Below are positions 6,000-60,566 of a DNA stretch of 64,000 bases, in pieces. The stretch spans positions 289,912,001 to 289,976,000 of the forward strand of contig OZ024742.1 in NCBI GenBank assembly GCA_964016885.1. The letters run 5' to 3'. This DNA comes from Eledone cirrhosa. Its lineage: Eukaryota. Within the stretch, counting starts at the first letter, position 1, and each line of letters begins with the position of its first letter. Under the pieces are notes generated by a model. That model did not search any database and was not told the origin of the DNA. It saw only the letters and a program-made list of their open reading frames with translations. The position numbers and the translations under genes were made by a program.

Positions 6000-6995
6000 T
6001 AATCTGCATTTAAATCATAATATGTGTTTACATAGTAGTGTCAGTATTAGGAAATGGTATTTGTAAGAAAGAAGGCTAAATTATGCATTTTAATATAAGT
6101 AGACTATTAATTATAGGTTAATTAAAGTAAAAATAGTTAATATATTAATTTCTAAGGTGTATATTACTTAGGTTTATAATATTTAAAGCGGAATTTTGAA
6201 GTTAAACAGTAGTAGAGTATTAATTATAGCATAACTAAATTAAAGATATTAACATGATGGTATCAATTTTAGGAAATGAATTTTGTAATAGGGAAAGCCA
6301 AATTAAGTATTTCATCGGTAGTAGAATATTAATTATAGGTTAACTAAATTAAAAATTATATATTAATTTCTATAGTATATGTTAATTAGGTTTATAATAA
6401 TTAAAGCAAAATTTTGTATTTTATCTATAGTAGAATATAATTATAGGTTAACTAAATTAAAATTAATCTATATATTTATTTGTAAAGAATATATTAATTA
6501 GGTATATATTTAAAAGTTTTTCTCAGTTTATGATTACACGATATTCTGCAATCCATCTGTATTAGAATTTTAATTTTAAGCTAACTAAATTAAAATTATA
6601 GGTTAACTAAATTAAAATTAATTTATAAATTAATTTCTAAATTGTATATTAATTAGGTTTATAATATTAAAAAGTATTTCTCTGTTATTGATTACACGAT
6701 ATTTTGTTATATTTCATCTGTAAAGGAATTTTAATAAAAGGTTAAATAAACTAAAATTAATCTATATATTAATTTCCAAAGTATATATTAATTATGTTAA
6801 TAATATGTAAAAGTTTTTCACAGTTTATGATTACACGATATTTTTTAAATTTCATCTGTAGTAGAATTTTAATTAAATTAAAATTATAGGTTAACTACAT
6901 TTAAATTAATTTATATATTAATTTCTAAAATATATATTATTAATTAGGTTTATAATATTTAAATGTTTTTCTCAGTTTATGATTACACGATATAA
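6000..6995. repeat. degenerate ~140-160 bp tandem repeats derived from the PLE ORF 3' end
   Basis: Variants of TTAGGTTTATAATA...CAGTTTATGATTACACGATA near 6500, 6655, 6795 and 6945. They decay leftwards. Confidence 0.75.
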
Positions 6996-9414: not shown

Positions 9415-9744
9415 GAGAAAGAGCTCAACTAAATGTATATGGAGTTATAAAATCATACATATATATGTATATACATAAATATAAAATTAACACACATATA
9501 CAATACAAAAATAAGGATACTTCCGTGAAAATAGGAGCAAATTATGTAGATAAATCTACCAAAAGTTTACGGTAGTGTCCAATCCGTATGAAGAAGTCAA
9601 TGTAATCCGGATATCATGGAAAGAAGAGATGCATTCAAAAATCACTTTCGGTGAAAGATAAACGGAATACAGAGTCAAGATAAAATATTTAAAAAATAAT
9701 AAATAAAACAAAGAAACAGTTCCTTATATTAAACAAAAAAAGTT

Positions 9745-13348: not shown

Positions 13349-13626
13349 TCATCATCATCATCACCGTTTTACGTCCGTTCTTCCACGCTAGCATGGGTTA
13401 GACAGGTTGTCCTGTTGTGGGCAGTGTCCGGTCAAAAGTTTGTTGTTGAGACATAATAATTCTATCATGGCAATTTGTGGAAGGAAGGGGTAGCTGAACC
13501 TGCCAGTAGGAGAAAGAGGGAGAGGGGGTGGAGGAGACCCAGTCATGCGTTGATAGTGCCGACTACAGTTGGGCATGAGGTCAAAGAAGATACTAGGGAA
13601 GATACACTTTTACCATATATGGAATT

Positions 13627-13722
13627 ACCCCTTGAGAAGCTCGGCTATTCAAATACCAGGATAAAAATGTTCATTTAGTCCAGAATTAGCCGTCGAAACG
13701 GCTTCAGCTCAGCCGTCGGGGT
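13627..13722 (+). ncRNA. type I hammerhead ribozyme, U3-A8 core variant
   Basis: ACCCC-TTGAGAA-G..CGGCTA...TAGCCG.C-GAAA-CGGC(loop)GCCG-TC-GGGGT. Predicted GUC cleavage after 13717. Confidence 0.75.
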
Positions 13723-13756
13723 CCTACTCGTTCCTATATATATATGTATATGTAGA

Positions 13757-15200
13757 ACAAACTCTCAAACCAGTTGAATGCACAACAAAAAAACAAAAAC
13801 AAGAACGGATTCTATTTGAAACGTGCACTACTTGACATGGAGACTGCACTCAGACTTTCCCATTTAAAGGAGAGGGCAAAGAGAGAAATCAAGGTCATAG
13901 AAAATATTAAAACAAACCCTAAGGCCTTCTTTAAATTTGCAAAAGAGACTGCCTCGGTACACTGCCAGATTGGGCTACTCTTCCATAAAGATGGTTCATT
14001 AACCGAGGATCCCGAAGAGATAAGTGAAATACTGAATGAACAGTACGAACCTGATGGATTCCCAGCAGTCCTCCTAAAAACATGTAAGCGTGCCTTAGCA
14101 ACTTCACTGACAACGCTCTTCAGAAGCTCCTTGGCTAGCGGTAGACTCCCCAGAGAGCTGAAAGAAGGCATAATATGCCCTATCCATAAAGAAGGTAGCA
14201 GAGCGGAGGCCAAAAACTATAGGCCAGTCTCCCTGACGTCACGTATCAGTAAGGTCATGGAGCGAATCATCAGAAAGAAACTGATCACTTTCCTCGAGGA
14301 AAATGACCGCCTGACTAGCCCGCAGCATGGCTTTTACCCCGGAAGAAGCTGCTTACACAGCTGCTACATCACTACGACTGGGTACTGAAACAACTGCTAG
14401 ACAGCGCACATGTGGATGTGATATATCTTGACCTTGTGAAGGCCTTTACAAGGTCGACCACGGAATGATATGTGACAAACTACACAGACTCGGCATAACT
14501 GGAAAAGTAGGTGAGTGGCTGCATGACTTCTTAAAGGACAGTTGCAGTAAACGGGGCCCTCTCAAAGGAAACATCAATAACAAGTGGGGTGCTCCAAGGC
14601 ACAGTCCTGGGACCACTACTGATTTTGGAGGCTCTCTCAGACATGTCCTCTGTAGTACATACAACATCCCTCACTAGCTATGCTGATGACACTAAGGTAG
14701 CACAGGCAATCAAAAACCCGGCTGATGCTGCCCTTTTACAACAAGATCTGGATGCTATATACAAATGGGCTGAAGACAACATGCAGTTTAATGCTGGAAA
14801 ATTTCAAGCCCTACAATACCAACCTGCAAACACAAATACAGTTCAACACAGTTACACTGGACCAGGAGGGACGAAATTCCTGTGTCAAAATGGATACGAG
14901 ACCTGGGAATAGACATGAGCGACGATGCATCTTTTTCCTCACACATCATGAAAGTGGTGACAATGTGCAGACGACTCGCTGGTTGGATCTTGAGGACTTT
15001 GCGGAAAAGAGACTGAGTGACGATGTTGACATTATGGAGGACATTTATCCTAAGCCGCCTGGACTATTGTGCCCAGCTGTGGTCACCCCATAGTGTCAAA
15101 CTTACCACGTAGCTTGAGGCAATCCAACAAGGATACACTAAGTGCATTGCGACGATAAAGGAGATAAGCTACTTTGGAGAGGCTAAAAGAACTACTTTGA
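13757..15200 (+). pseudogene. degenerate CR1 ORF2 copy (same family as 1-2845)
   Basis: Homologous peptides interrupted by frameshifts, stops and an internal deletion (EQYE/PDGF). Confidence 0.9.
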
Positions 15201-15489: not shown

Positions 15490-17966
15490 AAGAGCAATTA
15501 GAGACGTACACTATAGAGGAACAGAGGAATTCTTGAAAGTGAACATGCTGAAAGCGATGGATGAAATCTGTGGCTGGAGCAGACCTATTGGCAGGAGGAG
15601 AGTAACTTAGTGGTGGAACAGTAAGGTGGAGGAGACAATCAAGGCCAAAAGGCAGGCTTGGAAAATATGGCGGGATGGGGGAAGTAGAGAACACTGTCAA
15701 GTGGCCGGGAGAGAAGCTAGGAGACAAGTGTACCTTGCAAAAAGGGAAGCACAGGATAGAAATTTCAAACGTGAGGTGTTCAGGATTGCTAGACGATGTA
15801 TCAAGGAAAATCGTGATATTGTAGGGGAGAAGTGTGTCCGTAATGATAATGGTGTACTTGCCCTCACTGATACTGATAAGAAGGTAGCCTGGAAGTGTCA
15901 CTACGACAGACTATTAAATGAGGAGAATAAATGGGAAAAAGATAGTCTGCCCCAAATCGATCCAATAGAAGGAACAGCGGTGCAAGTTAAAGGTAGTATA
16001 ATAAGTAAGGCAATCAAAGATATGAAGACAGGCAAGGCAGCTGGGCCTTCGGAGATAGTTGCTGAAATGCTGAAAGCAGAATGGGGTCATACCAAAAGAC
16101 TGGCGTAGCAGCATCATCATTAGCTGCTACAAGGGCAAAGGGGATGCTCATAAAGGGGAAACTATAGAGGCATTAAGTTAGTTGACCAGGTCATGAAGGT
16201 CACAGAAAGAGTTATAGCTCAACTAATCAGAGAGCGAATTGATCTAGATGAAATGCAGTTTGGGTTTGTGTCAGGTAAAAGTACCACAGACGCACTTTTC
16301 CTTGTACGACCACTACAGGAGAAGTACCTACCTAAAAGTAAACCCCTCTACTTAGCTTTTGTAGACCTGGAGAAAGCCTTTGACAGAGTCCCCTGCTCCA
16401 TTATCTGGTGGGCCCTTAGAAAACTAGGTGTAGATAAATGGCTTGTGAGAGCTATACAACTCATGTATAAAGAAACAGTCAGTAAGGTTAGAATTAACAA
16501 TGAATATAGTGAAGAATGTAGTGTAAAAGTTGGTGTTCCTCAAGGCTCTGTCCTTAGCCCACTCCTATTTATTATTGCCCTTCAGGCGATAACAGAGGAG
16601 TTTAAGACTGGCTGCCCATGGTTACTTCTATACACAGATGATCTAACTCTCATAGCTGAATCTATGGCTGAACTAAAGAAGAAATTCCAAACATCGAAAG
16701 GCCTTAAAGTTAACTTGTCTAAGACTAAAGTTCTGGTATGTAGAAAGGAAAATAGGGCACAGGAGCCCTCTGGGAAATGGCCATGCTCAGTGTGTAGGAA
16801 AGGAGTAGGTATAAATTCCATTTTATGTCCCAAATGCAAACTATGGGTACATAAAAGATGTAATGGGATTACAGGTAAACTATCTAAGAACGTAGATTTT
16901 ATATGTGGCCGATGCTCAGGTGCAATAAGTAGCAAGTGCTCACAGGATACTAGCTCCTTCTATTGCCCAGATGGTTCTATAGAAATAGTGAACACATTCT
17001 GTTACCTGGTGGAGGGTGCTCTGAAAGTACAGTAGCCAGAGTCAGAACGGGATGGAAAAAGTTCAGAGAGCTTATACTGCTCTTGGCCACAAAAGGTTTC
17101 TCTCTAAAAATGAAAGGCAGATTGTATGATGCCTGTATACGAACAGCAATGCTACATGGCAGTGAGACATAGGCATTACATGCAGAGGACCTGCGCAGAC
17201 TGGAAAGGAATGAAGCATGCATGCTCCGTTGGATGTGTAATAGTAATATACGTGAACGGCAAAGCATAAATGAACTAAGTGAGAAATTAGGAACAAGAGG
17301 GATCAGATGCTGTTTACTTGAGAGAAGACTACGTTGGTATGGCCACATGATGCGCATGAAAGACGACAGCTGTATAAAAAAGTGCAGGGCGATCAAAATT
17401 GATGGTTGTTACGGAGTAGGTAGACCCAACAAAACCTGGGACGATCTGATAAATTCCGACCTTACACACTTGCACCTCTCTAAGACAATGTCACTAGACC
17501 GAGATCTTTGGCGTTACACAGTAATACAGAAGACCCGCCTTACCTATGTACAAAGCGAAACCTACAGTCGGTAGGCACCTCTTAACCAAATATACACCCA
17601 ATCCACTACCCCTACCCTATCTTCGCACTCCCACCAACACCACCCTCTCTCTATAAAGTTGGTACCACCACATCCAGTCCAAATAAATGGGATAATGAGA
17701 TCGAGATCGTGTAGGTGTCACGACAAAAAACACACAGTCCACGCTGTAATGTGGTTGTGTAGGTAACACGGTAAAAAGTTCCCAGTTCCACACTGTAAAT
17801 GTGGTTGGTGTTAGGAAGGGCATCCAGCCATAGAAAACCTGCCAGATAGTCCTATATGAGCGACACACGGTCACCCGACCAACCTTGCCTCAAGTGGGAC
17901 AACTCCCATCTAAACCCATGCTAGCGTGGAAGATGGATGTTAAACAAAGATGATGATGATGATGAT
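15490..17966 (+). mobile_element. RTE LINE, 5'-truncated and disrupted
   Basis: Peptides QFGF, FVDLEKAFD, QGSVLSP, YTDD, Cys-rich insert, LHGSET, RLRWYGH. 3' UTR with (GAT)n tail. Confidence 0.9.
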
Positions 17967-21172: not shown

Positions 21173-23363
21173 CACTGGTCTGCGATGTTTTCAAGGTCTA
21201 ACATATAATACATGATTTTAGGCCAGTTTTTTTCACTGAATCCAAAAATCATGCTCATTTTACTCAATCAGATCAGGTTAATGAAATATTAGCACATTAA
21301 AAATATCCTAAATTCCGATCTATTTGTAGGTGAATAAAACGCAATATTGAAAATATTAGACTGATTTATTCACAGAAGGCTTACAAAATATTTTGAATAG
21401 ATAGCAAGAAGAGTATAATGAACTAAGGAAGCTACTCATGGATGAATGGTCTCTTCAGGGACTTCCGTTTGTGCTGAGCAGACTGCGCATCCCTCTTTCG
21501 GCACCAGCAGTAGTCGGCCAGAAAGTTGACATCCCATCGGCCTTGATAGCGTTCCTCCATAACACTGATATCTTGGTGAAAGCGCTCACCATGTTCTTCA
21601 CTGAAGTCTCCACAATTCTCTGGAAAATAGTTCAGATGAGACCGGAGGAAGTGCATTTTCACTGACACGTGCGCACCAAGTTGGCGGAAATTCTCCATTA
21701 ACTCATCAACCACCTTCTGATACTGGGAACTTCTGTGGTTGCCAAGGAAGTTTGCAATGACTGACTTAAGGGACAACCAGGCAGAGAGTTCAGCAGGATT
21801 CAGTGCATCATCAAAACTAGTATCCTTGATGAGTTCCCTTATTTGAGGACCATCAAATATACCTGCCTTAATTTTCTCCATGCTTTTTCGTTGAAACTTC
21901 TGATGGAGGAAAGCAAATCCTCCACCTTCCCTGTCCAATGCCTTTACAAAGTTCTTCATGAGACCGAGTTTGATGTGGAGGGTTGGAAGCAATATCTTGC
22001 TCGGTTCAACCAGAGGGTGGGACAAAACGTTGTGTGATCCAGGTTTTAATCCTTGTCTTAATGGCCACTCTTGTCTGACATAATGCTGATCATCAGCACG
22101 GCTATCCCATAAGCACAGAAAGCATGGATACTTTGTGTAACCACCTTGAAGTCCTAGGATGAGTCCAACAACTTTAAGATCTCCACAGATCAACCATTTA
22201 TGTTTCTGGTAGTTCAGAGCAGACAACAGACGTTCCATGCTTTTGTGGGATTCTTTCATTTCAACTGAGTGCCCAACAGGGATCGATGAAAACTTGTTTC
22301 CGATATTCAGAAGAACTGCTTTGAGACTTCTGTTAGATGAGTCAATGAAAAGTCTCCATTCCATAGCATCATACTTCAGACCAAGTAATTCAATCAGGTC
22401 AGCAATATTGCTACAGTAGACCAGTGAAGATGCTTCATCAAACATGAAGAATTTTCTAAATTCTCTCTCGCGGTCCCGATGCCAATAGAATGTTGTTCCT
22501 GGCACCAGTAGACGTTTCTCTCGAAGACAAGAACCCAGTAGCTGGGCAGACTCCTTCGAAAGGTTCAGGTCTCGTGTCAGGTCATTGAGTTCGGCTTGGG
22601 TCAACGGCACCGGTTGGTCGTCCTCTTCTGACCTGTATTCATCACACTTAGCTGTATCAATCATGTCACTAGATTCGGAATCAGAACTAGATTCCATGGT
22701 GACACTTGGCTCAGGAACAGGAAGATCGGGGCCATGGGGGACTGGCTTTATGGCAGAAGGAACATCAGGGTATTGAACATGGTGCTTGTTCTTGCGATTG
22801 ATGCCTTTTAGATTTGTCATGCAAAAGTAGCAGTCGGTAACGTGATCTTTCCCTTCCCTCCACACCATTGGGACACCAAATGGCATACTCTTCCTTTTCT
22901 TGTTCCTCCAATCCCGTAAGTTCTCTACACATGTTTTGCAGCAGATATGGGGAGCGAATAGCTTATCCTGGTCCCCTAGTTTGACTCCAAAGTAAGCGTG
23001 ATATGCCTTCTTCACAAAATCCGTGATTTTTGCTTGACGGTCTGGAAGAACCACATGTCCGCAGATGTAACAGAACCTATTAGGATGGTTTTTACACTTC
23101 CGATCCATTTTTCTAGACCGGAAAAGAGAAATAAAAATAATTATTAAAGGTTACCCACGACCCGGTTTTGCAAAAGCAAAGCCTATAAACGCTTGGATTG
23201 CGATATTTTAGAAAAATATGCTGGAAAAGAAATAGACTATATCTTAGAAACCAGACCTGACCCAGAAAAATAAACTATTTTTGAATTCAGCATGCAAAAA
23301 GGGTCCTAAATCATTTGGAAAACCCTTGACCTTTTAAAAAAAGTTTTGAAACGCAGACCAGTG
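21173..23363 (-). mobile_element. full-length Chapaev3-type (CMC) DNA transposon
   Basis: TIRs CACTGGTCTGCG / CGCAGACCAGTG, with 3-bp TSD TAA on both sides. Confidence 0.85.
21432..23108 (-). CDS. Chapaev3-type transposase, intact 558 aa
   Basis: N-terminal zinc finger (FCYICG..CCKTC..H..DCYFC), LFIDSS, CGDLK, CFLCLWDSR, LHIKLGLMK, KMHFLRSH, EHGERFHQD. Confidence 0.85.
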   Translation of the reverse strand: MDRKCKNHPNRFCYICGHVVLPDRQAKITDFVKKAYHAYFGVKLGDQDKLFAPHICCKTCVENLRDWRNKKRKSMPFGVPMVWREGKDHVTDCYFCMTNLKGINRKNKHHVQYPDVPSAIKPVPHGPDLPVPEPSVTMESSSDSESSDMIDTAKCDEYRSEEDDQPVPLTQAELNDLTRDLNLSKESAQLLGSCLREKRLLVPGTTFYWHRDREREFRKFFMFDEASSLVYCSNIADLIELLGLKYDAMEWRLFIDSSNRSLKAVLLNIGNKFSSIPVGHSVEMKESHKSMERLLSALNYQKHKWLICGDLKVVGLILGLQGGYTKYPCFLCLWDSRADDQHYVRQEWPLRQGLKPGSHNVLSHPLVEPSKILLPTLHIKLGLMKNFVKALDREGGGFAFLHQKFQRKSMEKIKAGIFDGPQIRELIKDTSFDDALNPAELSAWLSLKSVIANFLGNHRSSQYQKVVDELMENFRQLGAHVSVKMHFLRSHLNYFPENCGDFSEEHGERFHQDISVMEERYQGRWDVNFLADYCWCRKRDAQSAQHKRKSLKRPFIHE

Positions 23364-27367: not shown

Positions 27368-28632
27368 CAGGGTGCGAATGATATTTATTCGCAAGATTAC
27401 TGTCTAGGAAAAAATAACACAGTAGTCTTATTTTTTAAGATATATTTATCAAACTTGCGTCAGTTTGTCTTCATGACTTGTTCTTTCGATCTCACTCGGT
27501 AAACCTGCCATTGGCTTTGATGACGGCCTCAAGGCGGCCTCAGAACTGGCTACAGGCCTTCGTCACTGTCCCCCGACTTAAGCCCCTAAAGGCACTTGTG
27601 ATCCTGGCCTTCAGATCGTCTTTCGTATTGCAGCTAGATCTGTTGGTGTCTCGTTCCACTGCATCCCACACAAAGAAGTAGAGGGGGTTGCAGTCAGGCG
27701 AGCTGGGATGCCAGATGTCAGGTGAAGTGTGGTCAACAAAGTTCTCTGACAGCCAGGCTTGGGTCTTTCGGCTAGTATGGCAGGGCGCTGAGTCTTGTTG
27801 CAACACGTACGGCCTACCTGCAGCTACCTAGTCGATCCAGGGCTTTACTACGTCGCTCAGAACGCGGATGTAGCCATCGGTGTTCAGCTTGAGGCCCTCA
27901 GGGAAGAAGTGAGGTGGCATGACGTCACCTTGACTGCTGACGACACTTAAGACCAATGTTGTCACTGGAAACTTTGTCTGCATGACTCTGGGCACGTCTT
28001 TGGATGAGACAGCGAGCCACCTGTTCTGGAAGTTAATCTTTTGGTCTTGGCAGAAGTTTTTCTCGTCGGAGAAAAACCACAGCATGTCTGGCTCCAGTGG
28101 GTGTTTCAACTTGTTGATCAGCTTCTTTGTGTGGTTCAGTCGCTTTTCTTGCATCACCTTTGACAGAAATTGTCCTTTCCTCATCTTGTATGAAACGTAG
28201 CGAATGTCTTCATGTACCACCATTGCAAGGTATGCATCGACTTGCTAGGTTCATTGTTGATGATATCCTGAACTTCAGCGACGAACTCGGGCGTTCTGAA
28301 GGCGTCAGATCATCGATCATGTGTTTTCCTCTCTGATGTTGCTTCGTAGTCGAATCCTGAATCTTCCAATTCCTTTCTGACCTTTTCCACCATTCTCCTG
28401 ATGACGCTGGGAAAGTCTGAAATTTCCTTATTTGTCCTCCCGGTGCGGATTCCAAGAAGAACTCCGTGTCTCTTCTACAAATTTGGAGGTTCAAAATTAT
28501 TCATAATCAATTATTCTGAAAATAAATAATAGAAATATAGTCACTGTTTTTATGAAGACAAGAGTGACAACGGAAGTAAAAAAAAATTACATAAAATTAG
28601 CAGTTGAAAATTGCGAACAAATATTGTCCACA
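27368..28632 (-). mobile_element. decayed Tc1/mariner, DD37D (maT)-like
   Basis: Left TIR TA|CAGGGTG and a degenerate right TIR. Peptides FSDEKNF and QQDSAPCH...SPDCNPL with 37-residue spacing. Stops and frameshifts present. Confidence 0.8.
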
Positions 28633-32219: not shown

Positions 32220-34165
32220 ATCATCATCATCATCGTTTAACGTCCATGTTCCACGCTTGCATGGGTTTGAACGGGAGTTTTCCCACTTGAGGCAAGAGTG
32301 GTTGTCTTGCTCGCATAGGACTGTCTGGCGGGTTTTCTACAGCTGGATGCCCTTCCTAACACCAACCACATTTACAGTGTGGGACTGGGAGGTTTTTACC
32401 GTGTTGCCTACACGGTCACATTACAGCGTGGACTGTGTGTTTTTTTGTCGTGACACCTACACGATCTCATTTGTTTCGGCCTGGATGTTGTGGCACCAAC
32501 ATAACTTTACATTGAAAGGGGGGTGTGGATGGGGTGGGGGTGGTGGGACGGGGGTGTATTTTGTTAGAGATGCCTACTGACTGTAGTAGGTTTTACTTTG
32601 TATTTAGGTAAGGCGGGTCTTCTCTATTACTGAGTACCGCCAAAGATCTCGGTCCAGTGACATTGTCTTGGAGAGGTGTAAGTGTGTGAGGTCGGAATTT
32701 ATCAGGTCGTCCCAGGTTTTTCTGGGTCTGCCTACTCCGTGGCTACCGTCTATCTTTATTGTCCTGCACTTTTTTATACAGCTGTCGTCTTTCATGCGCA
32801 TCACATGACCATACCAACATAGCCTTCTCTCGAGTAAACAACATCTGATCCCTCTTATTTCTAATTTTTCCCTTAGTTTGTTTATGCTTTGCCGTTCACG
32901 TATATTACTTCGTTCCTCTCTAGTCTGCGTATATCCTCTGCACACAATGCCCAGGTCTCACTGCCATGCAACATTGCTGTTCGTATGCAGGCATCATACA
33001 GCCTGCCTTTCATTTTTAGGGAGAACCCTTTAGCGGCTAATAGTGTTATAAGCTCTCTGAACTTTTTCCATCCAGTTCTGACTCTAGCTACTGTACTTTC
33101 AGAGCACCCTCCCCCACTGCTGATTTTGTCACCCAGGTAACGGAAGCTGTCCACTATTTCTATAGAACCCTCTGCGCAATTGAAAGAGCTAGTATTTTGT
33201 GGGCACTTGCTGCTACTTATTGCACCAGAGCACCGGCCACATGTAAGATCTATGTTCTTAGTTAGCTTACCTGTGATCCCACTACATCTTTTATGCACCC
33301 ATACTTTGCATTTGGGACATAAAATGGAGTTTCTACCTACGCCTTTCTTACACACTGAGCATGGCCATTTCCCGGAAGGGACCAGCGCCTTATTTTCTTT
33401 CCTACAAACTAGAACTTTAGTCTTAGCCAGGTTAATTTTAAGGCCTTTTGATTCTAGGCCGTGCTTCCATGTTTGGAATTTCTTCTCTAGCTTGGCCATT
33501 GATTCAGCTATGAGCGTTAGATCATCTGCGTATAGGAGTTCCCATGGGCAGCTGGTCTTGAACTCCACTGTTATAGCCTGAAGGGCAATAATAAATAGTA
33601 GGGTGTTAAGAACAGAGCCCTGATGAACACCAACTTTTACGCTAAACTCTTCACTATATTCGTTGTTAATTCTAACCTTGCTGACTGTTTCTTTATACAT
33701 GGCTTGTATAGCTCTCACAAGCCATTCATCAGCACCTAGTTTTCTAAGAGCCCACCAGATAATGGAACGGGGGACTCTGTTGAAGGCTTTCTCCAAGTCG
33801 ACAAAAGCTAAGTATAGGGGTTTACTTTTAGCTAGGTACTTCTCCTGTAGTTGTCGTACAATGAAAAGAGCGTCTGTGGTACTTTTGCCTGACACAAACC
33901 CGAACTGCATTTCATCTAGATCAATTCTCTCTCTGATTAGTTGCGCTATTACTTTTTCCGTGACCTTCATGACCTGGTCGATTAATTTAATGCCTCTATA
34001 GTTACTCCTATCTAGGGCATCTCCTTTACCCTTGTAACAGTTAATGATGATGCTGCTACGCCAGTCCTTCGGAACAACCCCATTCTCTATGACTTGGTTT
34101 ACTATCCGGGTGACCATGGTGTGTCCCACCGTTCCAGAGGCTTTCAGCATCTCAGCAACTATTTC

Positions 34166-34168
<3 letters not shown>
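32220..34168 (-). mobile_element. RTE LINE, 5'-truncated, young
   Basis: 422-aa RT ORF (YADD, Cys-rich insert) with one small deletion/frameshift, 3' UTR and tail. Flanked by (TA)n. Confidence 0.92.
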
Positions 34169-34213
<45 letters not shown>

Positions 34214-35068
34214 TAGGAAAATTAACTAAGAGAAGAAAATGAATGAAAACAAGGCAGAACAAAAAAAAAAATTTATTAAAGGGGAAACCTTAAAAAAATA
34301 TTTTAATTCCAAGGTCTTCAGCCATGCCGATGCACTTTGACAGTTTCAACCCTTACTGACGAGGATTCATTTTAATATTCCAAGTTGGATGATTTGTACT
34401 CTTGATGGTGTGTGACTTTATCTCCTCTATTGAACTATGTGGTGTTTTGGATGATGTGTCTTGAGTGCCTCACTGATAATACTTCCATCTATATTGGATC
34501 TTTTTCAATTTTTTTTTACTTTGAAGGCTTGATGGGTGTATTTATTTATTTATTCCACACACCATTATATCCTTTGAACATTTTGGGAAAAAATTGTTAT
34601 TATAACTGAATTATGTAGTCGAACTTATAGTCTTGCACCTGTCTGTAATCCCTGGCTATGCTACATGTGCATCTAACCTTTTTAAAATATATTTTAAAAT
34701 TTATATTTGAAATGCATGCTTTTTCACTTATTAACTTTCTTAATTTATCTGCAACAAACAGCATGTTTTTTCCGCCTCAGTTACCTTATATAAATTTTGA
34801 TGCTTACAATTATCTAACCTCCCATATTATGTATCCTCCTAATGTTCTCGTGACAAAGTTTTGCTCTTATATTTGTGTTTGACTCTTGTTATCAACTCCG
34901 ATGATTCTGGCCTTGTGCTAAGATGAAATAATCGTCTGTTATTAAATGTTTGAAAGATTAAAAACTCTTTGATTATCATTTACATTGTATTTTGGCTCTG
35001 TATTATACTTGTTATTTTATATTGAGCTATTTTCATACTTGTAACTGGGTAATATTTATTATTACCCA

Positions 35069-37116: not shown

Positions 37117-37925
37117 AGATATATATATATATGAAAGTAATGAGTGATTATGTGTAGTGCTTAAATGTCTTGTATGAGTTTGTTTACATGTGTTTGTCAT
37201 GCAGCAGAAATTTTCATAATACTTACTATATATTGGTACATTTCTTGATAAGCTCTGATCCATGTGACCATAGGAACATCACCATCATCACCAGTATCAT
37301 CACTACCAGCACCATCGTCATCATCATTACTACCACCAGCATCATAATCACTATCATCAACACCACCACCATCACATCTGAAACTACCCAATACCACTGT
37401 TATTACCACTACCCCCCCCATCCCTATCCTCAACATATCAAAAATCTACCCTCTCTCAGTTCGGAATGACGTCTCAACTTCCAAGTAAGACTTTCTGTGA
37501 ACATTTTGCATTATACACATTATATATACACTAATTAGACATACTTGTATATATATTTATATACATTATACATACTGTATATATTCATTATATATAAATA
37601 CACACACACATGTATTTATATAAATATACTTCTCACCTTCCATAATACAGACCAAGACATTGTGTAAATATATCAATATATTATCCATACTTATTTATAG
37701 TGTACATTATACACAGAATATTCATACTTATATATACATAACTATATATATATAATTAAATTCCTTACATACCCCCCTCCCCCACTGCTATGAAGGAATT
37801 TAACCATGTACATGTCATTCCAAAATCATTGACCACTGCCCATGACAGATAAGAAAAACAACAATTTTTAGGATTGTTTGATTTGATACTTCTCTGTTTT
37901 GATTGCATGCCCATATATGGACTGT

Positions 37926-38021
37926 ACCCCTTGATAAGTTCAGCTAGGTCCCTGCTGTCCTAATTCTACTGGTTTAGTTTGGATCTAGCTGTCGAAATGG
38001 CCGGAGCTCAGCCGTCGGGGT
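37926..38021 (+). ncRNA. type I hammerhead ribozyme, U3-A8 core variant
   Basis: ACCCC-TTGATAA-G..CAGCTAGGTCC...GGATCTAGCTG.C-GAAA-TGGC(loop)GCCG-TC-GGGGT. Confidence 0.75.
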
Positions 38022-38598
38022 CTCGACTCTTTTCCTGTTACCCACTCTACTATCCTAAGTATCGAGTACTCTGGTGCGTTATGGTCCATCTGGTTCCTTA
38101 CCACACTTTCTTTGTTATATATATATATTTGAATTAATAACAGCACGTATAATCACCAATAATATTTATATTTTATCTATTTATATAAATATGTATATAA
38201 TTGACTGGTTGTAATATAATAAACTAAAATGTACTTACAACCTTAATTCCTTAAACTATAATTATATACATTATATATATAATATTATAACTCATGATTT
38301 GGTTATATATTTAAAAATTTTTGGATTAGTATTCTACCACTTCAACACATTTTTAATTTTTACATCTACTTGCACCCTAATAATAATATTAGCCTATCTT
38401 TCTTCCTTCTTCTTCATCTGATTCTTTTATAAAGTATCCTAATAATATAACGATTTTTTCAGTTCATTCTTCTACTTCATTTGCATATCCATCCTAAATG
38501 ATTTGAAATTTTTCTCTTTTTCTTTCACTATCCAATTGGAACCTGAACCGTTAAGATCTGGTTTATCGGGTATGTCACTATTTATAAAACAAATTTTG

Positions 38599-38661
38599 TA
38601 TTTTATCTGATGAGATCATACCAAAGTTTTTTGGTACCCTTGAAATATATATAATAAAATA
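38599..38661 (+). ncRNA. minimal hammerhead-like motif (family of 28992)
   Basis: TATTTTAT-CTGATGA..TACCAAA/TTTGGTA..GAAA-TATATA-TA-ATAAAATA. Confidence 0.55.
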
Positions 38662-38817: not shown

Positions 38818-41304
38818 CCTTCTTCCTGCTATATCAAGCGTTAACCTAATATATACCTTCCATATACTATACCGATTGTGTTGTTATTTCTGTTTACCTT
38901 TTACATACATACATATTTATGTGTGTGTGTGTGTGTGTATTGGTAAAGTTGATGTGACAAAAAGAATATGATTTACATTTAGTTTTGAAATTTTAAAACA
39001 TTTTTGCTGTACATATTTGTAAAATACCCATCCATTCACATTACATATCTGATTCCTCTTATACTTGGAGTTGTGTAGGTCCTTTCCAACTCAGCCTTTT
39101 TGCCACTTGTTGCATTCCTGTATTCTCATTTATGATATTCAGCACCCTTGCGTCAGTTTTCACTAAATCAGCCCTAGAGAATATTTTCAAATTATTTGAA
39201 AATCATAGGCTGTGTCTTTCATTGTAAATATGATAATGAAAGTGTTAAAGTGTTTATATTTATCTAAAAACCTTCATCAAAATTTTATGTAAGAATTGTT
39301 GTTAGTTATGTTCCAAACCCCAATCTAATAATGAGAAAGAAAACGAAGAAAGACAGATAAAAAAATTAAAACAAAAATATTCTCCAATGAGAAAGCCCCC
39401 CAAAAGCCACAATCATTCTAACTGCTAGGGCATGTGCCCCCTCCCAGTTGTCCTCCTCCAATCTACAAGAGTAGGCTCATTTATTTGGGCCATGCTCGCA
39501 ACTATTACCTTTCAACAAACTGGTTAAATGCTCCAGTGTGGTCAGACATAGACCATGAAAAAACACAAAGGTCAGTTGGTTGTAGATCACAGGTTCTCAA
39601 CCCATTTAGGCCAAATGCCCCCTTTTGTCCCTCGAAATCACGAAACGCGCCCCCCCCCCCCACCCTATTTTTCCATTTTTCAATATACTACTGATTTTGA
39701 TATCAGTAGATTATTAAAAAATTGATTAACAATATTCCAAAGATACCATTGCAGGCAGCTGAGAGTATAAATACATTCCTTGAAAGGAAATATATAAATT
39801 TCAAAAAAAGGAACATAAATGTTCTTTTTTATGAATAAGGACCAGTTGAATTTGTTATATTCCCACCAAGCGATACCAACTATTTTGAACATTTATACAA
39901 GAGCAACTCTGTCTATCCAAAGTGCTCTTATCTGGAAGAAAGTGGCAATTATATCATTCCAAAGCTTTCCAATTTTCCCTTTACTGAAACAGACAGAATA
40001 AATGTTGATATCTAACTTGATGTCCCCTCTGCTTTGTGAGCTTAGAGACCACGGAAGAAGATTTTCATGACCACGCGGGAGGGTATATTTATTAGTAAAT
40101 GGTAAAATATATACAACAAATGAGTAAGTGAATTGTAGTAGATGGTTTCCAGTCCAGTCAGACTGCAACTACAAATAAAAAAAAATTGTTAGTTTGCTTT
40201 GTAACAATAACATATCCAAGTTTTTGGATAAATCAACTTACTTTAACTTTGACCTCATTTCAATGGGACCCTTGAACTTTATGGAGTCTAGCTAACTCTT
40301 TGACGTCAGGCTGGATTTTCGTAAGATGTAGCCGGAGATCTCCACGTGTAATTACATTGTAGCGGTTGCGAGCCTTACTGTGCAGTCTGGAATAGGCAGA
40401 GCAAATCTCTTAGCCTCTACATGTAGGTGTGGAAATCGACATTGAATTTCCTCTTGCATCTAAAAAAGAGGTTCACCTATTTTAGGAAATCTAATTTTGA
40501 TCATGTCATCCGCTTGAAGTTCAATGAATTCTTCCTGAAATATAACGCCCAAATCATCGACATTAGCTATGAAGGGATCTGCTACCCACATTGGGATGTC
40601 CATCGGCAAAAGGTCGACAAACAGTTCTCCCATGTTGTCTTGTAGCGCATGGAGGTGAGCGGTATAAATTTGGAGTTGGTCATCGCTTACAATGTTTTGA
40701 ACATTGGCGACACTAGGAAAATTATAGAATTCCCGTCAACAAAGATTCCTTTCGATGACATTCAATTTGGCCAGGAATGTTTTCACAGCATTCCTTGCTT
40801 TAAGCAAAGTGATCTTCTTCCCCTGCAAAGCCAAAATGATGCTATTGCATTTGTCGACGATGTTGGTGAGGTAGGCGCAGTTTTGCCTCACATCGAGGGT
40901 TTTCTTGTACAGTTCTGTGTTGCGTCCTCGTAGAAACTCAATGATAGAGTCGAACAGTTCAAAGAAGTGAGTAAGGCAATTACCCTTTGAAAGCCACCTC
41001 ACTTCATTATGAAGGAGCAACTTGACGAATTCTTTGTCATTATGTTGGCACAGTTGCTGGAAAATTCGTTCATTGAGGAAATGCCGTTTGATAAAATTGA
41101 TGACATCAAGGGCCACCTGCAAGGACTTGCTCAGCGGCTTGCTGAGTTTCATCGCAGCCAAGTGTTGTCGATGAATGACACAATGAACAACAAATACAGA
41201 TAAATTTTCTTTCTTCAGAAGAGTGACAAAACCTTTATGTTGGCCGACCATTGCTCTTGCGTCGTCCGTAGCACATGATACAATGTGTGTTGTATTTGGT
41301 CCTA

Positions 41305-41826
41305 GCCACGGAGTAGGCAGACCCAGAAAAACCTGGGATGACTTGATAAACTCCGACCTCACACACTTACACCTCTCCAAGAAAATGTCACTGGACCGAG
41401 ATCTTTGCGCTACACAGTAATACAGAAGACCCGCCTTGCCTAAGTACAAAGCAAAACCTACAGTCAGTAGGCACCTCTAACAAAAATACACCCCTGTCCC
41501 ACTACCCCCACCCCATCCACACCACCCCTTCCAATGTAATGGTATGTTGGTACCACAACATCCAGTCCGAAACAAATGAGGTCGTGTAGGTGTCACGACA
41601 AAAAAACAGATAGTCCACACTGTAATGTGGCCGTGTAGGTAACACGGTAAAAACCTCCCAGTCCACACTGTAAACGTGGTTGGTGTTAGGAAAGGCATCC
41701 AGCTGTAGAAAACCCGCCAGACAGTCCTATACGAGCAAGACAACCAATCTTGCCTCAAGTGGGAAAATTCCCATCCAAACCCATGCTAGCGTAGAAGATG
41801 GACATTAAATGATGATGATGATGATG
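41305..41826 (+). mobile_element. RTE 3' end inserted in the hAT
   Basis: HGVGRPRKTWDDLINSD followed by 3' UTR and (GAT)n. Confidence 0.88.
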
Positions 41827-44930: not shown

Positions 44931-45558
44931 GCACAGCCAGATTGGAAGTGGTATCAAGACTGACAAATGTAGGGTCAGTTAGAAATGGTTGCTTCTGACT
45001 GGACCTGAAGGAAGGTATGCTTGTAGACTCTGCCCCACTCCTTATACAGCTGTCACCCTCCATACATAACCCTTCTTTCAGCTCACTCATGTCACACATC
45101 CATGTTTACTTTCAGAATCACAATGCTTGTATTTGTTGACATATCACCAGTCCAGACAGCTCAGTCCTGTATTATCTCCTTCAGTTTCTTCACAACTTTG
45201 CCTCATGTCCTTCTAGGTCTCCTCTTTCACAGATTCTATCCATTTTAAGTGCATGTCTCTTTTTTTTATACTCTCACTCTTTTTATGCATCATATGACCA
45301 TACCAGTGCAATAATTTCTCTGGTAGGCTACATTCAATTCCTTTTATAGAAGAGGAGCTGAAAGCCAGCAGTTTAGTTAAGGGGGCAGTGCAAGCAATTA
45401 GGGAAGATGGAGAAGCTTGTTTTGGGGCTGCAAGGCTAACTTCTGATTTTGCAGAAAAATAGCCTTAAAATAGTTGTTAATTGTAAATGAATTTATAAAA
45501 CCTTTATATCCTAATTCCTTTTTTTTTTTTACTTTCAGTTTTGGATGCCTTTGGAAAT

Positions 45559-46322
45559 ATGGCATTTGGCTGGCCCCAGAACATTCCTGACACTCTTCAG
45601 GAAATGTGTTTGAATATTTTTGTCAAAAACCCAGAGGCATTAGCCACTATTACAGAAGGTAATCGATACACTCTACGTCCTGGTATCTTTTTGCCGCAGG
45701 AAATATGTGAAGGACTTTTGAAAGCATGGCGAGAACGACCTGAAGAATTAACAGATAATATTCTCTACATTTTTGAAGACCCCACACGGACACGTCTTGC
45801 AAAGGTTAATCTTTCTCAAACTTCAGTAAGCAACGATGGGTTGGCTTATATTCAAAATCATACTCTCAGTGATCTCTGCCTTCTGTCATGTTCAAACATA
45901 GACCCGTCTCGTTTATTATTTGAAATGCTCAATACCTCAGGCTGTTCCTTACGAACACTGCAGCTTGGATTTAAGGATTTACACCAGAAGTCCTATTTCA
46001 GTGAACTTAAATACCAGATGTCAAATGGTGAAAAACATGTACATAATGATAAACTAACTATTTTTAACTGCCCTAACTTACAATGCCTCTCATTGAGAAA
46101 AGTAAGCTTTAAAAGTTGTCCGTTACTGCTGAATTCAGTGTTGATGCCATTGAATCGACTCACATTCCTTGATCTTTACCAGTGTGAGCTGAAACCAGAG
46201 TGCTTTGAATTCCTGAGCAATGTCCCCAAACTGCTGTCTCTCAGTCTGGCACAGGTTAATCTACCCAAAGACAAAATTGACAAAATTATAGATTCTATAT
46301 GCAAACATGTGAAAGGGTTAAG
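45559..46322 (+). CDS. ZER1: ZER1-like protein, first coding exon (acceptor at 45538/9)
   Basis: PDTLQEMCL (BC-box-like), LRPGIFLPQEICEGLL, LRR-like repeats. Poly-T..CAG acceptor and AG|GTAAGT donor (phase 2). Confidence 0.85.
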
Positions 46323-46344
46323 GTAAGTGTTTCTCATTATTATT

Positions 46345-49930: not shown

Positions 49931-50559
49931 ATTTTTTAACCCACCATTAATATCCATGTCATTAAAATAACCAAGATATCTCCTAAGATAGCACTCAAGA
50001 TACATCTCATAGTCTGACTAAACTTACATAAGTGTGAGCTGTAACAATGACAACATATATGTGTGATAGGACTGGGCCTGCTATCATTGAAGCCCTGAAG
50101 AAACCTATGAGATACAACCTTGTAGCTGTAACAACAACAATATATCTATTATCTATCGATCTCTATATATATGTGTGTTTTTTTGTTGTTGTCATCTGTG
50201 CCTGAGATTACATCACATTTATATACAATGTCATTCATCAGGCATTTGTTTTCGAGTGGACACACTTCCTTATTGTGGCATTGCACAAGGCTCCTGTCCA
50301 GGGGTCGGTTTCGGAGGTAGTAGGCTTATTTAATTTAGTGGTGTTGAGGTTGGCTATATTCCTAGCTAAGTTTTATTGTATTCTTATTTAAAATAGTGTA
50401 GTATCTATGTTGTGTGGGGAAGTGTTTATTCAGCATTTTGAAGAAAGTCTTAGCTATTAGTGTAGATACTACCTCTTGGTTGAAGGAGTGGAGGGGGGGG
50501 GTTTGTACCAACTAATTTGCCTATGCCTATTTCTCCTAAGTGGTCTTGGGGTGTTTTCT

Positions 50560-51215
50560 AGATAGATAATCTTTTCTTTAAAGCCACTGTGGGCAAGGGC
50601 TTTGTTGTAATAAGGGGCAGAGGTACTAAAGATGTGTTCATTGGCTGAAAGACTGTAAATTCTAAGTGAGACACTGTTAACTAAATTATCAGTAATATTT
50701 TTGGGATGGTTTGAACTAACATCTATGTATCTAAGGGATTTGTTATGTTTGTAGTACTGGTAATAGAGGGAAGTATCTAAATCTAAAGTGACATCTAAAA
50801 TGTCATATTTGATTCTATGGTTATTCTGAAACCTCGATTACGGAAAGATGAGCATAAGTTTTTCCGAAACCCGTCAGTGGTTCTGGGGTTTACCTTGTGT
50901 AAAGTAAAAAGGTCATCGTCATGGTATAATCCTCCGGTCAGGCCTGTGAAAAGGTTCTTCAGGTGGTATAGGATATACAGGCCCACCAGATCGCTAACTT
51001 CTGTGGAGTCACTTGCTTCCATACTGACATCAAATGGAGTCTCAGACTTCTTGTTAATCCAGTAAGACCCTTTGTAGTATAAAAAGGTCTTATGGGCATG
51101 GAGGATCATGCCCTGCTCAGCATCAGTGATGGTGGTAAAATTCCTGGCAAAAGCAAGTACATCCTTCAGTAGAGGCTCTGAGATAGAAGCGTAGTAGTCT
51201 TCTATATCCAGTTGA
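50560..51215 (-). pseudogene. Penelope RT fragment
   Basis: Peptides QLDIEDYYASIS, SDLVGLYIL, GGLYHDD. Related to 6940-9414. Confidence 0.8.
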
Positions 51216-53025: not shown

Positions 53026-53027
<2 letters not shown>

Positions 53028-54875
53028 TTGATCTAGATGAAATGCAGTTCGGGTTTGTGTCAGGCAAAAGTACCACAGACGCTCTTTTCATTGTACGACA
53101 ACTACAGGAGAAGTACCTAGCTAAAAGTAAACCCCTATACTTAGCTTTCGTCGACTTGGAGAAAGCCTTCAACAGAGTCCCCCGTTCCATTATCTGGTGG
53201 TCTCTTAGAAAACTAGGTGTTGACGAATGGCTTGTGAGAGCTATACAAGCCATGTATAAAGAAACGGTCAGTAAGGTTAGAATTAACAACGAATATAGTG
53301 AAGAGTTTAGCGTAAAAGTTGGTGTCCATCAGGGCTCTGTTCTTAGCCCCCTACTATTTATTATTGCCCTTCAGGCTATAACAGAGGAGTTCAAGACCGG
53401 CTGCCCATGGGAACTCCTATACGCAGATGATCTAACGCTCATAGCTGAATCAATGACCGAACTAGAGAAGAAATTCCAAACATGGAAGCACGGCCTAGAA
53501 TCAAAAGGCCTTAAAATTAACCTGGCTAAGACTAAAGTTCTAGTTTGTAGGAAAGAAAATAAGGCGGCGGTCCCATCTGGGAAATGGCCATGCTCAGTGT
53601 GTAGGAATGGCGTAGGTAGAAACTCCATTTTATGTCCCAAATGCAAAGTATGGGTGCATAAAAGATGTAGTGGGATCACAGGTAAGCTAACTAAGAACAT
53701 AGATTTTACATGTGGCCGGTGCTCTGGTGCAATAAGTAGCAGCAAGTGCCCACAAAATACTAGCTCCTTCAACTGCGCAGAGGGTTCTATAGAAATAGTG
53801 GACAGCTTCCGTTATCTGGGTGACAAAATCAGCAGTGGGGGAGGGTGCTCTGAAAGTACAGTAGCTAGAGTCAGAACTGGATGGAAAAAGTTCAGAGAGC
53901 TTATACCACTATTAGCCGCTAGAGGGTTCTCCCTAAAAATGAAAGGCAGGTTATACGATGCCTGCATACGAACAGCAATGCTGCATGGCAGTGAGACCTG
54001 GGCATTGTGTGCAGAGGATATACGCAGACTAGAGAGGAACGAAGCTTGCATGCTCCGCTGGATGTGCAATAGTAATATACGTGAACGGCAAAGCATAAAC
54101 GAACTAAGGAAAAAATTAGAAATAAGAGGGATCAGATGTTGTTTACTCGAGAGAAGGCTACGTTGGTACGGTCACGTGATGCGCATGAAAGACGACAGCT
54201 GTATAACAAAGTGCAGGGCAATAAAGATAGACGGTAGCCACGGAGTAGGCAGACCCAGAAAAACATGGGACGAGCTGATAAATTCCGACCTCACACGCTT
54301 ACACCTCTCCAAGACAATGTCACTGGACCGAGTCCTTTGGCGGTACTCAGTAATAGAGAAGACCCGCCTTACCTAAATACAAAGTAAAAACCTACTACAG
54401 TCAGTAGGCATCTCTATCAAAACACACCCCCGTCCCACCACCTCCACCCCACCCACACCGCCCCTTTCAATGTAAAGTTATGTTGGTCCCACAACATCCA
54501 GGCCGAAACAAATGAGATCGTGTAGGTGTCACGACAAAAAACACACAGTCCACGCTGTAAATGTGGCCGTGTAGGCAACACGGTAAAAACCTCCCAGCCC
54601 CACACTGTAAATGTGGTTGGTGTTAGGAAGGGCATCCAGCTGTAGAAAACCCGCCAGACAGTCCACGCTGTAATGTGGCCGTGTAGGCAACACGGTAAAA
54701 ACCTCCCAGCCCCACACTGTAAATGTGGTTGGTGTTAGGAAGGGCATCCAACTGTAGAAAACCCGCCAGACAGTCCTATGCGAGCAAGACAACCACTCTT
54801 GCCTCAAGTGGGAAAACCCCCGTCCAAACCCATGCAAGCGTGGAACACGGACGCTAAACCTGATGATGATGATGA
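53026..54875 (+). mobile_element. RTE LINE, 5'-truncated, open 444-aa frame
   Basis: Nearly identical to 32220-34168. The 3' UTR contains a ~113-bp tandem duplication. Confidence 0.92.
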
Positions 54876-59670: not shown

Positions 59671-60566
59671 CGAGGTGTGTCAGAAAAGTTCTAGGACTGA
59701 TGTCACAAAAGATTTATTTCAAACCCAAACTTCACACTAAGAGTTTTCTCCTTCAAAGTAATCCCCCTGGCGTATGTAACTGTAATTTTAGCTCTCTGCA
59801 GCGATCAAACTTTTTTCTTCGTAATTTGATATACATGTCCTCTGTTTCAGGTCGTCAAGCAATGAGCACAGAGCAACGAACAAACTTGAAAACTCCGTCA
59901 GAAGCACTGGGATTGCTGCAGCAAGTGTATGGAGATGAGACGATGTCACGCTCATGTGTTTTTTAGTGGTGCAAGAGGTTTAAAGAAGGACGCGAGGACG
60001 TGGAAGATGACCCCAGGAGCGGAAGGCCCTCAACAACCAGGACTGAGGTCGATGTTGAGCGCGTCAGGCAGATGGTGCATAGCGATCATCGGCTGACTGT
60101 TCGACTGATGGCAAATGAGCTGAGCATGAATCGAGACAGCGTCTGGAAGATTCTCACTGAAGATTTGGATATGCGGAGAGTCTGCGCGAAGATGGTGCCA
60201 AAACTGCTGAACGATGACCAGAAGGGTCGACACATGCAAATGTGCCAGGACATCCTCGAGCCTCTTGAAACCGAACCAGACTTGCTAGGGACAGTCATCA
60301 CCGGTGATGAGTCATGGATCTTCGAGTACGACCCGGAGGGGACCTGTTTTGAAGACGTGGATGACATCAAAAAGGCCATGATGACGGAACTGCGGAGGAT
60401 GCCGGAAGAATCCTTCCAGGGGTGCATGCAAGCGTGGCAGAAAAGGATGGAAAAGTGCATTAGACTCCAGGGGGATTACTTTGAAGGAGAAAACTCTTCG
60501 TGTGAAGTTTGGGTTTGAAATAAATCTTTTGTGACATCAGTCCTGGAACTTTTCTGACCCACCTCG
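59671..60566 (+). mobile_element. internally deleted mariner with ~66-bp TIRs
   Basis: TA|CGAGGTG...CACCTCG|TA. Peptides EDDPRSGRP, KMVPK, ITGDESW. Catalytic segment is deleted after YDPE. Confidence 0.9.

Follow-up and report, generated by a model that had tools for sequence, protein, structure and literature searches.

A U3-A8 hammerhead motif in the likely 3' end of a Penelope-like retroelement, and the insertion ends of its family

The hammerhead motif of copy B

The window, by which we mean the whole 64,000-nt stretch of DNA analysed here, contains five hammerhead-like matches in a descriptor scan of both strands. Two of them have a U3-A8 core and are called copy A and copy B. Their features are these:

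37772..38122 (+), copy B: 5'-truncated Penelope-like retroelement of subfamily B (3' UTR end, hammerhead, long tail), as we read it; 89% over 351 nt to locus L061
37911..37920 (+), palindrome CCATATATGG, which is CCATATAAGG in other subfamilies
37926..37930 (+), 5' strand of stem I, paired with 38017-38021
37931..37938 (+), core U3 U4 G5 A6 U7 A8 A9 (UUGAUAA, 37931-37937), then G10.1 (37938)
37941..37991 (+), long stem II (11 bp, 37941-37951/37981-37991, one G.U) and loop II
37973..37978 (+), TTTAGT in loop II, its A at 37976: candidate transcription start
37993..38016 (+), C11.1 (37993), G12-A13-A14, stem III, U16.1 and C17 (38016)
37994..37997 (+), GAAA
37997..38001 paired with 38011..38015 (+), stem III, with a palindromic GAGCUC loop
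38017..38118 (+), long tail, reaching ~100 nt past the predicted cut; short-tail copies stop at +20
38116..38130 (no strand), (TA)n target of insertion, with the same junction in relatives
13605..13737 (+), copy A: younger subfamily, short-tail form

Judged from its sequence, the motif of copy B is a type I hammerhead fold with a U3-A8 core. The elements of such a core (the 3-8 pair, G12-A13-A14, A15.1-U16.1 and H17) are all present in UUGAUAA...GAAA...UC, and the predicted cut would likely fall after 38016. The preliminary description of this DNA had placed the palindrome, stems I and III, the core, GAAA and C17 correctly, and copy A does lie 24 kb away, as it said (the core of A is at 13632, 24.3 kb off). 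It had also described a stem II extended to 11 bp. The helix is there, but it does not stack on the core, from which it is separated by one G10.1-C11.1 pair and then a 2x1 internal loop. In the modelled fold, this loop beside G10.1-C11.1 may slow the ribozyme. In stem III of copy B, C15.2 has become U by CpG decay, giving a U.G pair.

When the motif is trimmed to 96 nt, its minimum-energy structure is a three-way junction (z = -2.31, with 3 of 200 shuffles equally good), and the fold constrained to the hammerhead lies at most 0.8 kcal/mol from the minimum. For a 125-nt version with flanks, z is only -0.90. No Rfam family reached its gathering score in a search of the whole window, and no hammerhead family was found in four loci searched at E <= 5. 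A search for a stem I-II tertiary contact, considering canonical pairing only, gave complementarities between loop II and the flanks of 4-5 nt at the longest, none conserved above 5 nt. The upstream palindrome can be ruled out as a conserved structure because it is broken in the CCATATAAGG subfamilies. CCATATATGG, CCATATAAGG and one CCAAATAAGG all fit CC(A/T)6GG, which we take to be the CArG box, possibly by chance.

Elsewhere in the window, an exon-like frame at 45499-46326 (+) has a Zer-1-like LRR match in Pfam (E 2.5e-4, below cut-off) and is probably a host gene. By eye, we take several other stretches to be LINE-like RT remnants (2-2845, 13756-15100, 15500-17570, 32882-34225, 53027-54376) and DNA-transposase-like frames (21432-23150, 27828-28244, 40736-41476, 59967-60518).

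Parent element and selection on structure

Other B copies share a common 3' end in (TA)n and extend upstream by 34 to >1,500 nt, and several have an inverted head-to-head partner. At the B-type locus L061, a short-tail hammerhead in inverted orientation is accompanied by the remnant of an RT ORF (470 aa, its nuclease decayed), a 3' UTR and the long-tail hammerhead. As B copies run upstream into the RT ORF, a stand-alone SINE or retrozyme is ruled out for B. A whole unit of a young subfamily is found at L114, where two hammerheads 3,118 nt apart surround one 717-aa ORF; the tail of the first hammerhead continues into the 5' UTR and ORF. DNA contigs aligned to L114 show two (TA)n-joined ends, and loose ends at L114 positions 3109 and 3189. 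The L114 ORF contains RWR, DKT, YRDD, CxCX5C, YIG and terminal CxxC and CxH motifs, with CCHH absent by eye. By these motifs, the single ORF reads as an RT followed by a GIY-YIG-type nuclease. In PMC8557442, these motifs and the (TA)n targets characterise the Hydra clade of Penelope-like elements. The architecture is likewise of Hydra type, with (TA)n insertion, a hammerhead-bearing pLTR, tandem and inverted 5'-truncated copies and an optional tail.

We are thus confident that copy B comes from a Penelope-like retrotransposon whose protein motifs are those of the Hydra clade; it is the 3' end of an insertion in (TA)n that was truncated at its 5' side. Pfam gave no match for four Penelope-type ORFs, that of L114 included, so the domain names rest on motifs; the nearest database proteins are 38-54% identical to the element ORF. 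The label 'Hydra' for the parent correspondingly denotes resemblance in motifs and architecture. The preliminary description had spoken of selection in a parent family; selection on structure in the parent holds up, and the parent, a Hydra-type Penelope-like element, was one that it had not named.

Further elements of this kind occur in the window. An ORF of 834 aa (stop to stop) at 6940-9444 (-) carries RWR, DKT, YRDD and CxCX5C, with AT-rich tandem repeats after it, and a third copy of a Hydra-type ORF, which is broken, lies at 50104-51214 (-). Canonical C3-G8 minimal hammerheads are located at 38607, 29000 (+), 26404 (-) and 38786 (+). The type at 38607 and 29000 ends a different Hydra-type element, whose upstream ORF at L208 is 41% identical to that of L114.

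The family is large. In the 3.0-Gb genome, a DNA search with B returned 4,300 first-look candidates, the best 40 of which, when scored, were 86-93% identical (the window excepted), and a search with A returned 2,969, many of them 98-99% identical. For a pattern of the core plus stem II, the genome contains 5,864 exact matches (0 for the reversed control), and for a strict B pattern 147. When a looser pattern was run on metagenome contigs, which gave at least 119 matches, stems I and III paired in 0 of the 119 matches listed, versus 28 of 30 loci of the genome itself.

Copy A, which meets an inverted stretch of its own 3' UTR (13454-13593) head-to-head, is by sequence a younger subfamily of the same lineage as B. 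Between the B and A majorities, 2 of the 50 columns in the core, stems and palindrome (GAGCUC) differ, compared to 36 of 77 other columns (Fisher p = 8e-8), and those two columns form one compensatory pair. The stem II covariation reported between the two copies amounts to this one pair, a modest point. The idea that A and B are unrelated outside the core is rejected. Their loops II, earlier called unrelated, both have TTTAGT at an equal distance from the cut. The 3' flank is common to the family (90% over 90 nt for a B copy versus a young copy), and long-tail A-type copies match the B tail at ~85%, so the claim of unrelated flanks fails at the family level.

Nine subfamilies were recognized from 123 copies in the fetched loci, with 4-5 mismatches tolerated in copy extraction. 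Across their majorities, two of which represent groups of two copies each, 8 of 50 core, stem and GAGCUC columns vary, versus 47 of 77 others. One caveat here is that BLAST was used to gather B and A copies, whereas the other subfamilies came from pattern searches in which parts of the core were fixed; hence the B-versus-A comparison alone is largely free of that bias. The ORFs of L061 and L114 are homologous and 78% identical, with 63% of synonymous sites differing (dS 1.39, dN 0.12).

These data support selection on structure in the parent lineage, as far as can be read from sequence. The preliminary description had gone further, to selection on ribozyme function. The structural part stands (2/50 versus 36/77, at dS 1.39), and selection on a cleaving ribozyme is probable, with catalysis as the selected property being what the sequence pattern suggests. 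Within B, decay at non-CpG sites is close to neutral (4.8% in core and stems, 6.8% elsewhere), which places the selection on the transposing masters, not on the window copy. An intact core is found in 16 of 33 B copies, the window copy among them. That copy differs from the B majority at six positions, one of which is the CpG change in stem III, and is itself likely inert and decaying.

When 649 kb of fetched loci were scanned with a descriptor, a second U3-A8 motif emerged, that of family R; a further family, D, is older:

L073:9011-9901 (-) and G000:C7:69971479-69977077, family R: U3-A8 hammerhead in a 591-nt tandem unit; inverted partners; two fixed ends, both in (TA)n
L212:1577-2261 (+), family D: U3-A8 hammerhead in an older unit of 685 nt, also in L207-L238; internal duplication

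Head-to-tail units of R are 98-100% identical (best 40 of 223 candidates) and form arrays of up to nine direct units plus one inverted. Their ends in (TA)n lie mostly at ~+80 or +241-247 from the predicted cut. A pattern that avoids most of the main family had 7,967 genome matches, against 14 for its control, and 95 of the first 100 belonged to R; family D came to light through the same pattern. With near-identical copies genome-wide, family R is, on sequence grounds, a candidate for a very young retrozyme. Family D has 76 exact matches, and a tandem was seen in L212. Short head-to-tail non-coding units, the mark of a retrozyme, are found in R and D and not in B. Beyond the ribozyme layout, neither R nor D matched the 3.1-kb element in sequence at word size 7, and TTAGT is absent from the corresponding place in loop II of both.

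In D, stem II is a continuous 5-bp helix and the palindromic stem III shows a compensatory switch (ACUAUCGAUAGU <-> ACUGUCGACAGU); in R, the base of stem II consists of G-C and U-A pairs and then a bulge. Taken with the main family, R and D show covariation in stems I and III. For 12 chosen sequences from the three lineages, 142 of 144 cells are paired, compared to 33-51% in slid controls, and 6 of 12 pairs show double-sided change. None of 500 shuffles matched the paired fraction or the score, while 96 of 500 matched the count of double-changed pairs. The covariation rests on three independent lineages, too few for a formal test. U4, G5, A6, A9, G10.1, C11.1, G12-A15, U16.1 and C17 do not vary among the 12 sequences, an invariance that is partly built in, as the search patterns fixed most of these positions. 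N7 varies, and all four bases occur there across subfamilies, as the preliminary description had anticipated.

Insertion ends and a proposed mechanism

The first 20 nt past the cut, preceded by C17, have 40,571 genome matches, a pattern that covers the young subfamilies and not B. We located the upstream ends of the first 100 of these tails listed, all from one 18.7-Mb stretch of contig C1 (0-18.7 Mb). For 89 the end lay within 48 nt above the cut, and for 63 at 31-50, values of 45-48 being partly an overshoot caused by self-complementary arm ends; one ended at 51-84 and 10 beyond 85. The position of this truncation wall is ~40-44 nt above the cut.

At the other side, the element has two fixed 3' ends, +20 and +100 from the cut. 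Most sampled copies are tiny head-to-head pairs in (TA)n, and 29 of 31 such pairs have one long (+100) and one short (+20) tail, which fits two start sites on two strands, as described in PMC11167929. Arms ended within 50 nt in 42 of 47 long-tail and 45 of 50 short-tail cases (medians 36.5 and 37, p = 0.51). Long- and short-tail arms thus stop alike, which argues that position sets the stop and rules out a limit on cDNA length as its cause. Splicing or a leader at the wall is also rejected: in the 17 junctions listed, one arm abuts the other and no foreign sequence recurs between them. Short arms of B type form a small, selected set.

TTTAGT or TTCAGT occurs in loop II of 101 of 115 aligned copies, A and B of the window among them, and in each its A lies exactly 41 nt upstream of the cut. 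TTTAGT resembles what we take to be the TCAGT/TTAGT initiator. The youngest subfamilies carry TATTTAAA in stem II, beginning 29 nt above the A of TTTAGT (L114:3017-3046), and B does not. The distance from TATTTAAA to TTTAGT is, we presume, that of a TATA box to its initiator. Read from these sequences, the wall likely marks the start of the element's RNA. Promoters within the pLTR with Inr-like starts have been described for Penelope (PMC2377424, PMC3846280). In a literature search that reached few subscription papers, we found no Penelope-like element described as having a truncation wall, a strong stop or a terminal redundancy; one 'template jump' appeared in another context.

On balance, we favour as the best overall explanation a Penelope-like 3' end carrying a conserved, likely cutting hammerhead. 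How the ends arise is less sure, and we come just short of even belief in a start inside the ribozyme followed by a jump. Transcription would begin at the initiator-like TTAGT in loop II of the upstream repeat. An RNA that starts inside loop II has half a ribozyme at its 5' end, which could not cut, whereas the whole downstream repeat would cut after C17, leaving ~41 nt repeated at both RNA ends. The element protein would nick both strands of (TA)n, and reverse transcription would begin at +20 on one and +100 on the other and run off the RNA 5' end at -41. In ~1 in 10 cases it would jump to the repeated 3' end and continue; failed jumps would leave two short cDNAs joined head-to-head. Copy B would be a jump case, continued for ~245 nt above the cut. 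Jumping itself has no strict need of the cut.

We offer the fuller scheme more tentatively still. In it, a promoter in loop II would disarm the upstream ribozyme, and the downstream cut would define a 41-nt redundancy like the R region of an LTR. Strong-stop cDNAs, one per strand, would have to jump, and failure in ~9 of 10 cases would yield ~18,000 tiny head-to-head insertions; R and D would use the same U3-A8 variant.

The wall could instead be a roadblock, with a protein or a tertiary fold on the TTAGT of an uncut hammerhead stopping reverse transcription. In favour of this, arms stop at a specific position, at a conserved motif; in young subfamilies, a small hairpin has its 3' strand at -44 to -37; and a Penelope ribozyme needed its protein to cut, implying binding (PMC11167929). 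This hairpin, the nearest to the wall, is weak, however (-1.9 kcal/mol), and it differs in B; stronger helices are passed by the enzyme, such as stem III at -4.9 kcal/mol. The edge is also abrupt, with 1 of 100 arms ending at 51-84. We regard a roadblock as unlikely.

A further group of ends bears on cutting. Ends exactly at the cut were seen in 19 of 30 tails sampled from 962 preceded by a purine, or ~610 by extrapolation. Ends one base above it were seen in 17 of 29 sampled from 363, or at most ~210, and in many of these the C is that of the partner arm. Ends one base higher would be favoured by a pause before stem III, and ends at the cut by a cut RNA. The excess at the cut comes from two samples of ~30 with no controls at +1 to +5, and pausing at stem III could contribute to it.

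The core variants bear on the same question:

L095:1496-1596 (+), C3.A8 mismatch subfamily with core CUGAGAAG; 1,454 exact genome matches

C3.A8 copies have their own loop II variants, shared with related U3-A8 subfamilies, which indicates that masters with the mismatch transposed. U3.G8 occurs in both arms at one sampled locus. Together, these copies argue that the 3-8 pair is not needed for amplification. N7 is G in 18 of 19 sampled C3 copies, and a shifted C3-G pairing is conceivable.

The 1,454 C3.A8 copies speak for another reading, in which the fold is a scaffold, retained for binding protein or for dimerising RNA, and cutting is dispensable. Two other observations point the same way: the tail is conserved as much as the ribozyme, and in sampled copies of the B/A lineage the palindromic stem III is predicted to pair between two RNA molecules at -22 to -31 kcal/mol. 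Moreover, ribozyme mutants of PAc from Anolis inserted normally in vitro, where the main template was uncut RNA, no reads ended at the cut and cutting needed protein (PMC11167929). Against a scaffold stand the excess of ends exactly at the cut and a core that is invariant across three lineages while N7 varies, which is the pattern of catalysis, albeit partly built in. We consider it improbable that the fold is a scaffold alone.

Slightly more improbable is the model of PMC4209133, in which read-through RNA is cut by both ribozymes, ligated into a circle and copied by rolling reverse transcription. The R arrays, with up to nine direct 591-nt units and an inverted one, fit it, as does the partial tandem of L114, and ends at the exact cut imply that some RNAs began there. 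A circle is endless, however, and gives no account of 89 of 100 arms stopping within 48 nt above the cut; rolling circles fit family R better than the 3.1-kb element. Retention of the window copy by the host, for example as an intronic ribozyme, is very improbable: its core is intact, as in only 16 of 33 B copies, and the Zer-1-like LRR exon (a weak Pfam match) lies 7 kb off, but B decays near-neutrally and the copy has its six differences from the majority, the CpG change in stem III among them.

Significance and comparison with known systems

The role of the hammerhead in Penelope-like elements is called unclear in PMC8557442, and in PMC11167929 it proved dispensable in vitro. In the family described here, natural insertion ends number in the tens of thousands; they show a sharp stop within the ribozyme and, at the predicted cut, a lesser excess. 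Two predictions of the start-and-jump mechanism are testable, namely an RNA start at -41 and a cyclic-phosphate end at C17. The family also provides a natural series of transposed core variants (U3-A8, C3.A8 and U3.G8), long U3-A8 ribozymes with no Rfam hammerhead match and, in R, a 591-nt unit that may be a very young retrozyme. Taken by itself, the window copy is an unremarkable repeat in decay, and what gives the case its interest is the pattern of ends across the family, together with the side families.

U3-A8 is a natural hammerhead variant (PMC3088659), and its occurrence in Penelope-like elements is already published (PMC4209133). That report concerns Cercyon of Schistosoma mansoni, where minimal U3-A8 hammerheads lie in a Penelope-like repeat with ~1,300 matches. 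Cercyon resembles the present family in G10.1-C11.1, in a palindromic stem III region and in opposite-strand pairs 100-700 bp apart. It differs in having no real stem III and an extra base after A9, whereas the motif here has a stable stem III (a monomer fold is predicted), no extra base and a long, branched stem II.

Similarity to the Hydra clade, as set out in PMC8557442, is broader. It includes a single ORF with RWK-like, DKT and CxCX5C motifs, a C-terminal nuclease without CCHH, a length of ~3 kb, (TA)n targets, a terminal-repeat hammerhead, an inverted 5'-truncated partner and an optional tail. The ribozymes are less alike: all 26 Hydra rows in file S2 of that paper are CUGANGA (C3-G8), in contrast to U3-A8 here. 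Loop 2 measures 3-10 nt there and the stem II domain ~55 nt here, and a stem III of 3-4 bp and a tail of 30-40 nt compare with 5-7 bp and 80 nt.

In Poseidon PAc of Anolis (PMC11167929), two internal reverse-transcription starts below the ribozyme likewise define the tail, and insertion at AT-rich sites involves cutting and extension of both DNA strands. PAc, however, has a canonical minimal core, with a ribozyme dispensable in vitro, and it is not known to leave a truncation wall or head-to-head mini-insertions.

Families R and D, finally, are like non-LTR retrozymes, with tandem non-coding units, one type I hammerhead in each and Penelope-style ends (PMC7229834; bioRxiv 10.64898/2026.07.22.740005), and retrozymes have been reported as Penelope derivatives (bioRxiv 10.64898/2026.07.22.740005). 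They depart from the retrozymes of PMC7229834 in unit length (591 and 685 nt versus 170-400 nt) and in their U3-A8 core, and copy B departs from retrozymes in its ORF-bearing parent.
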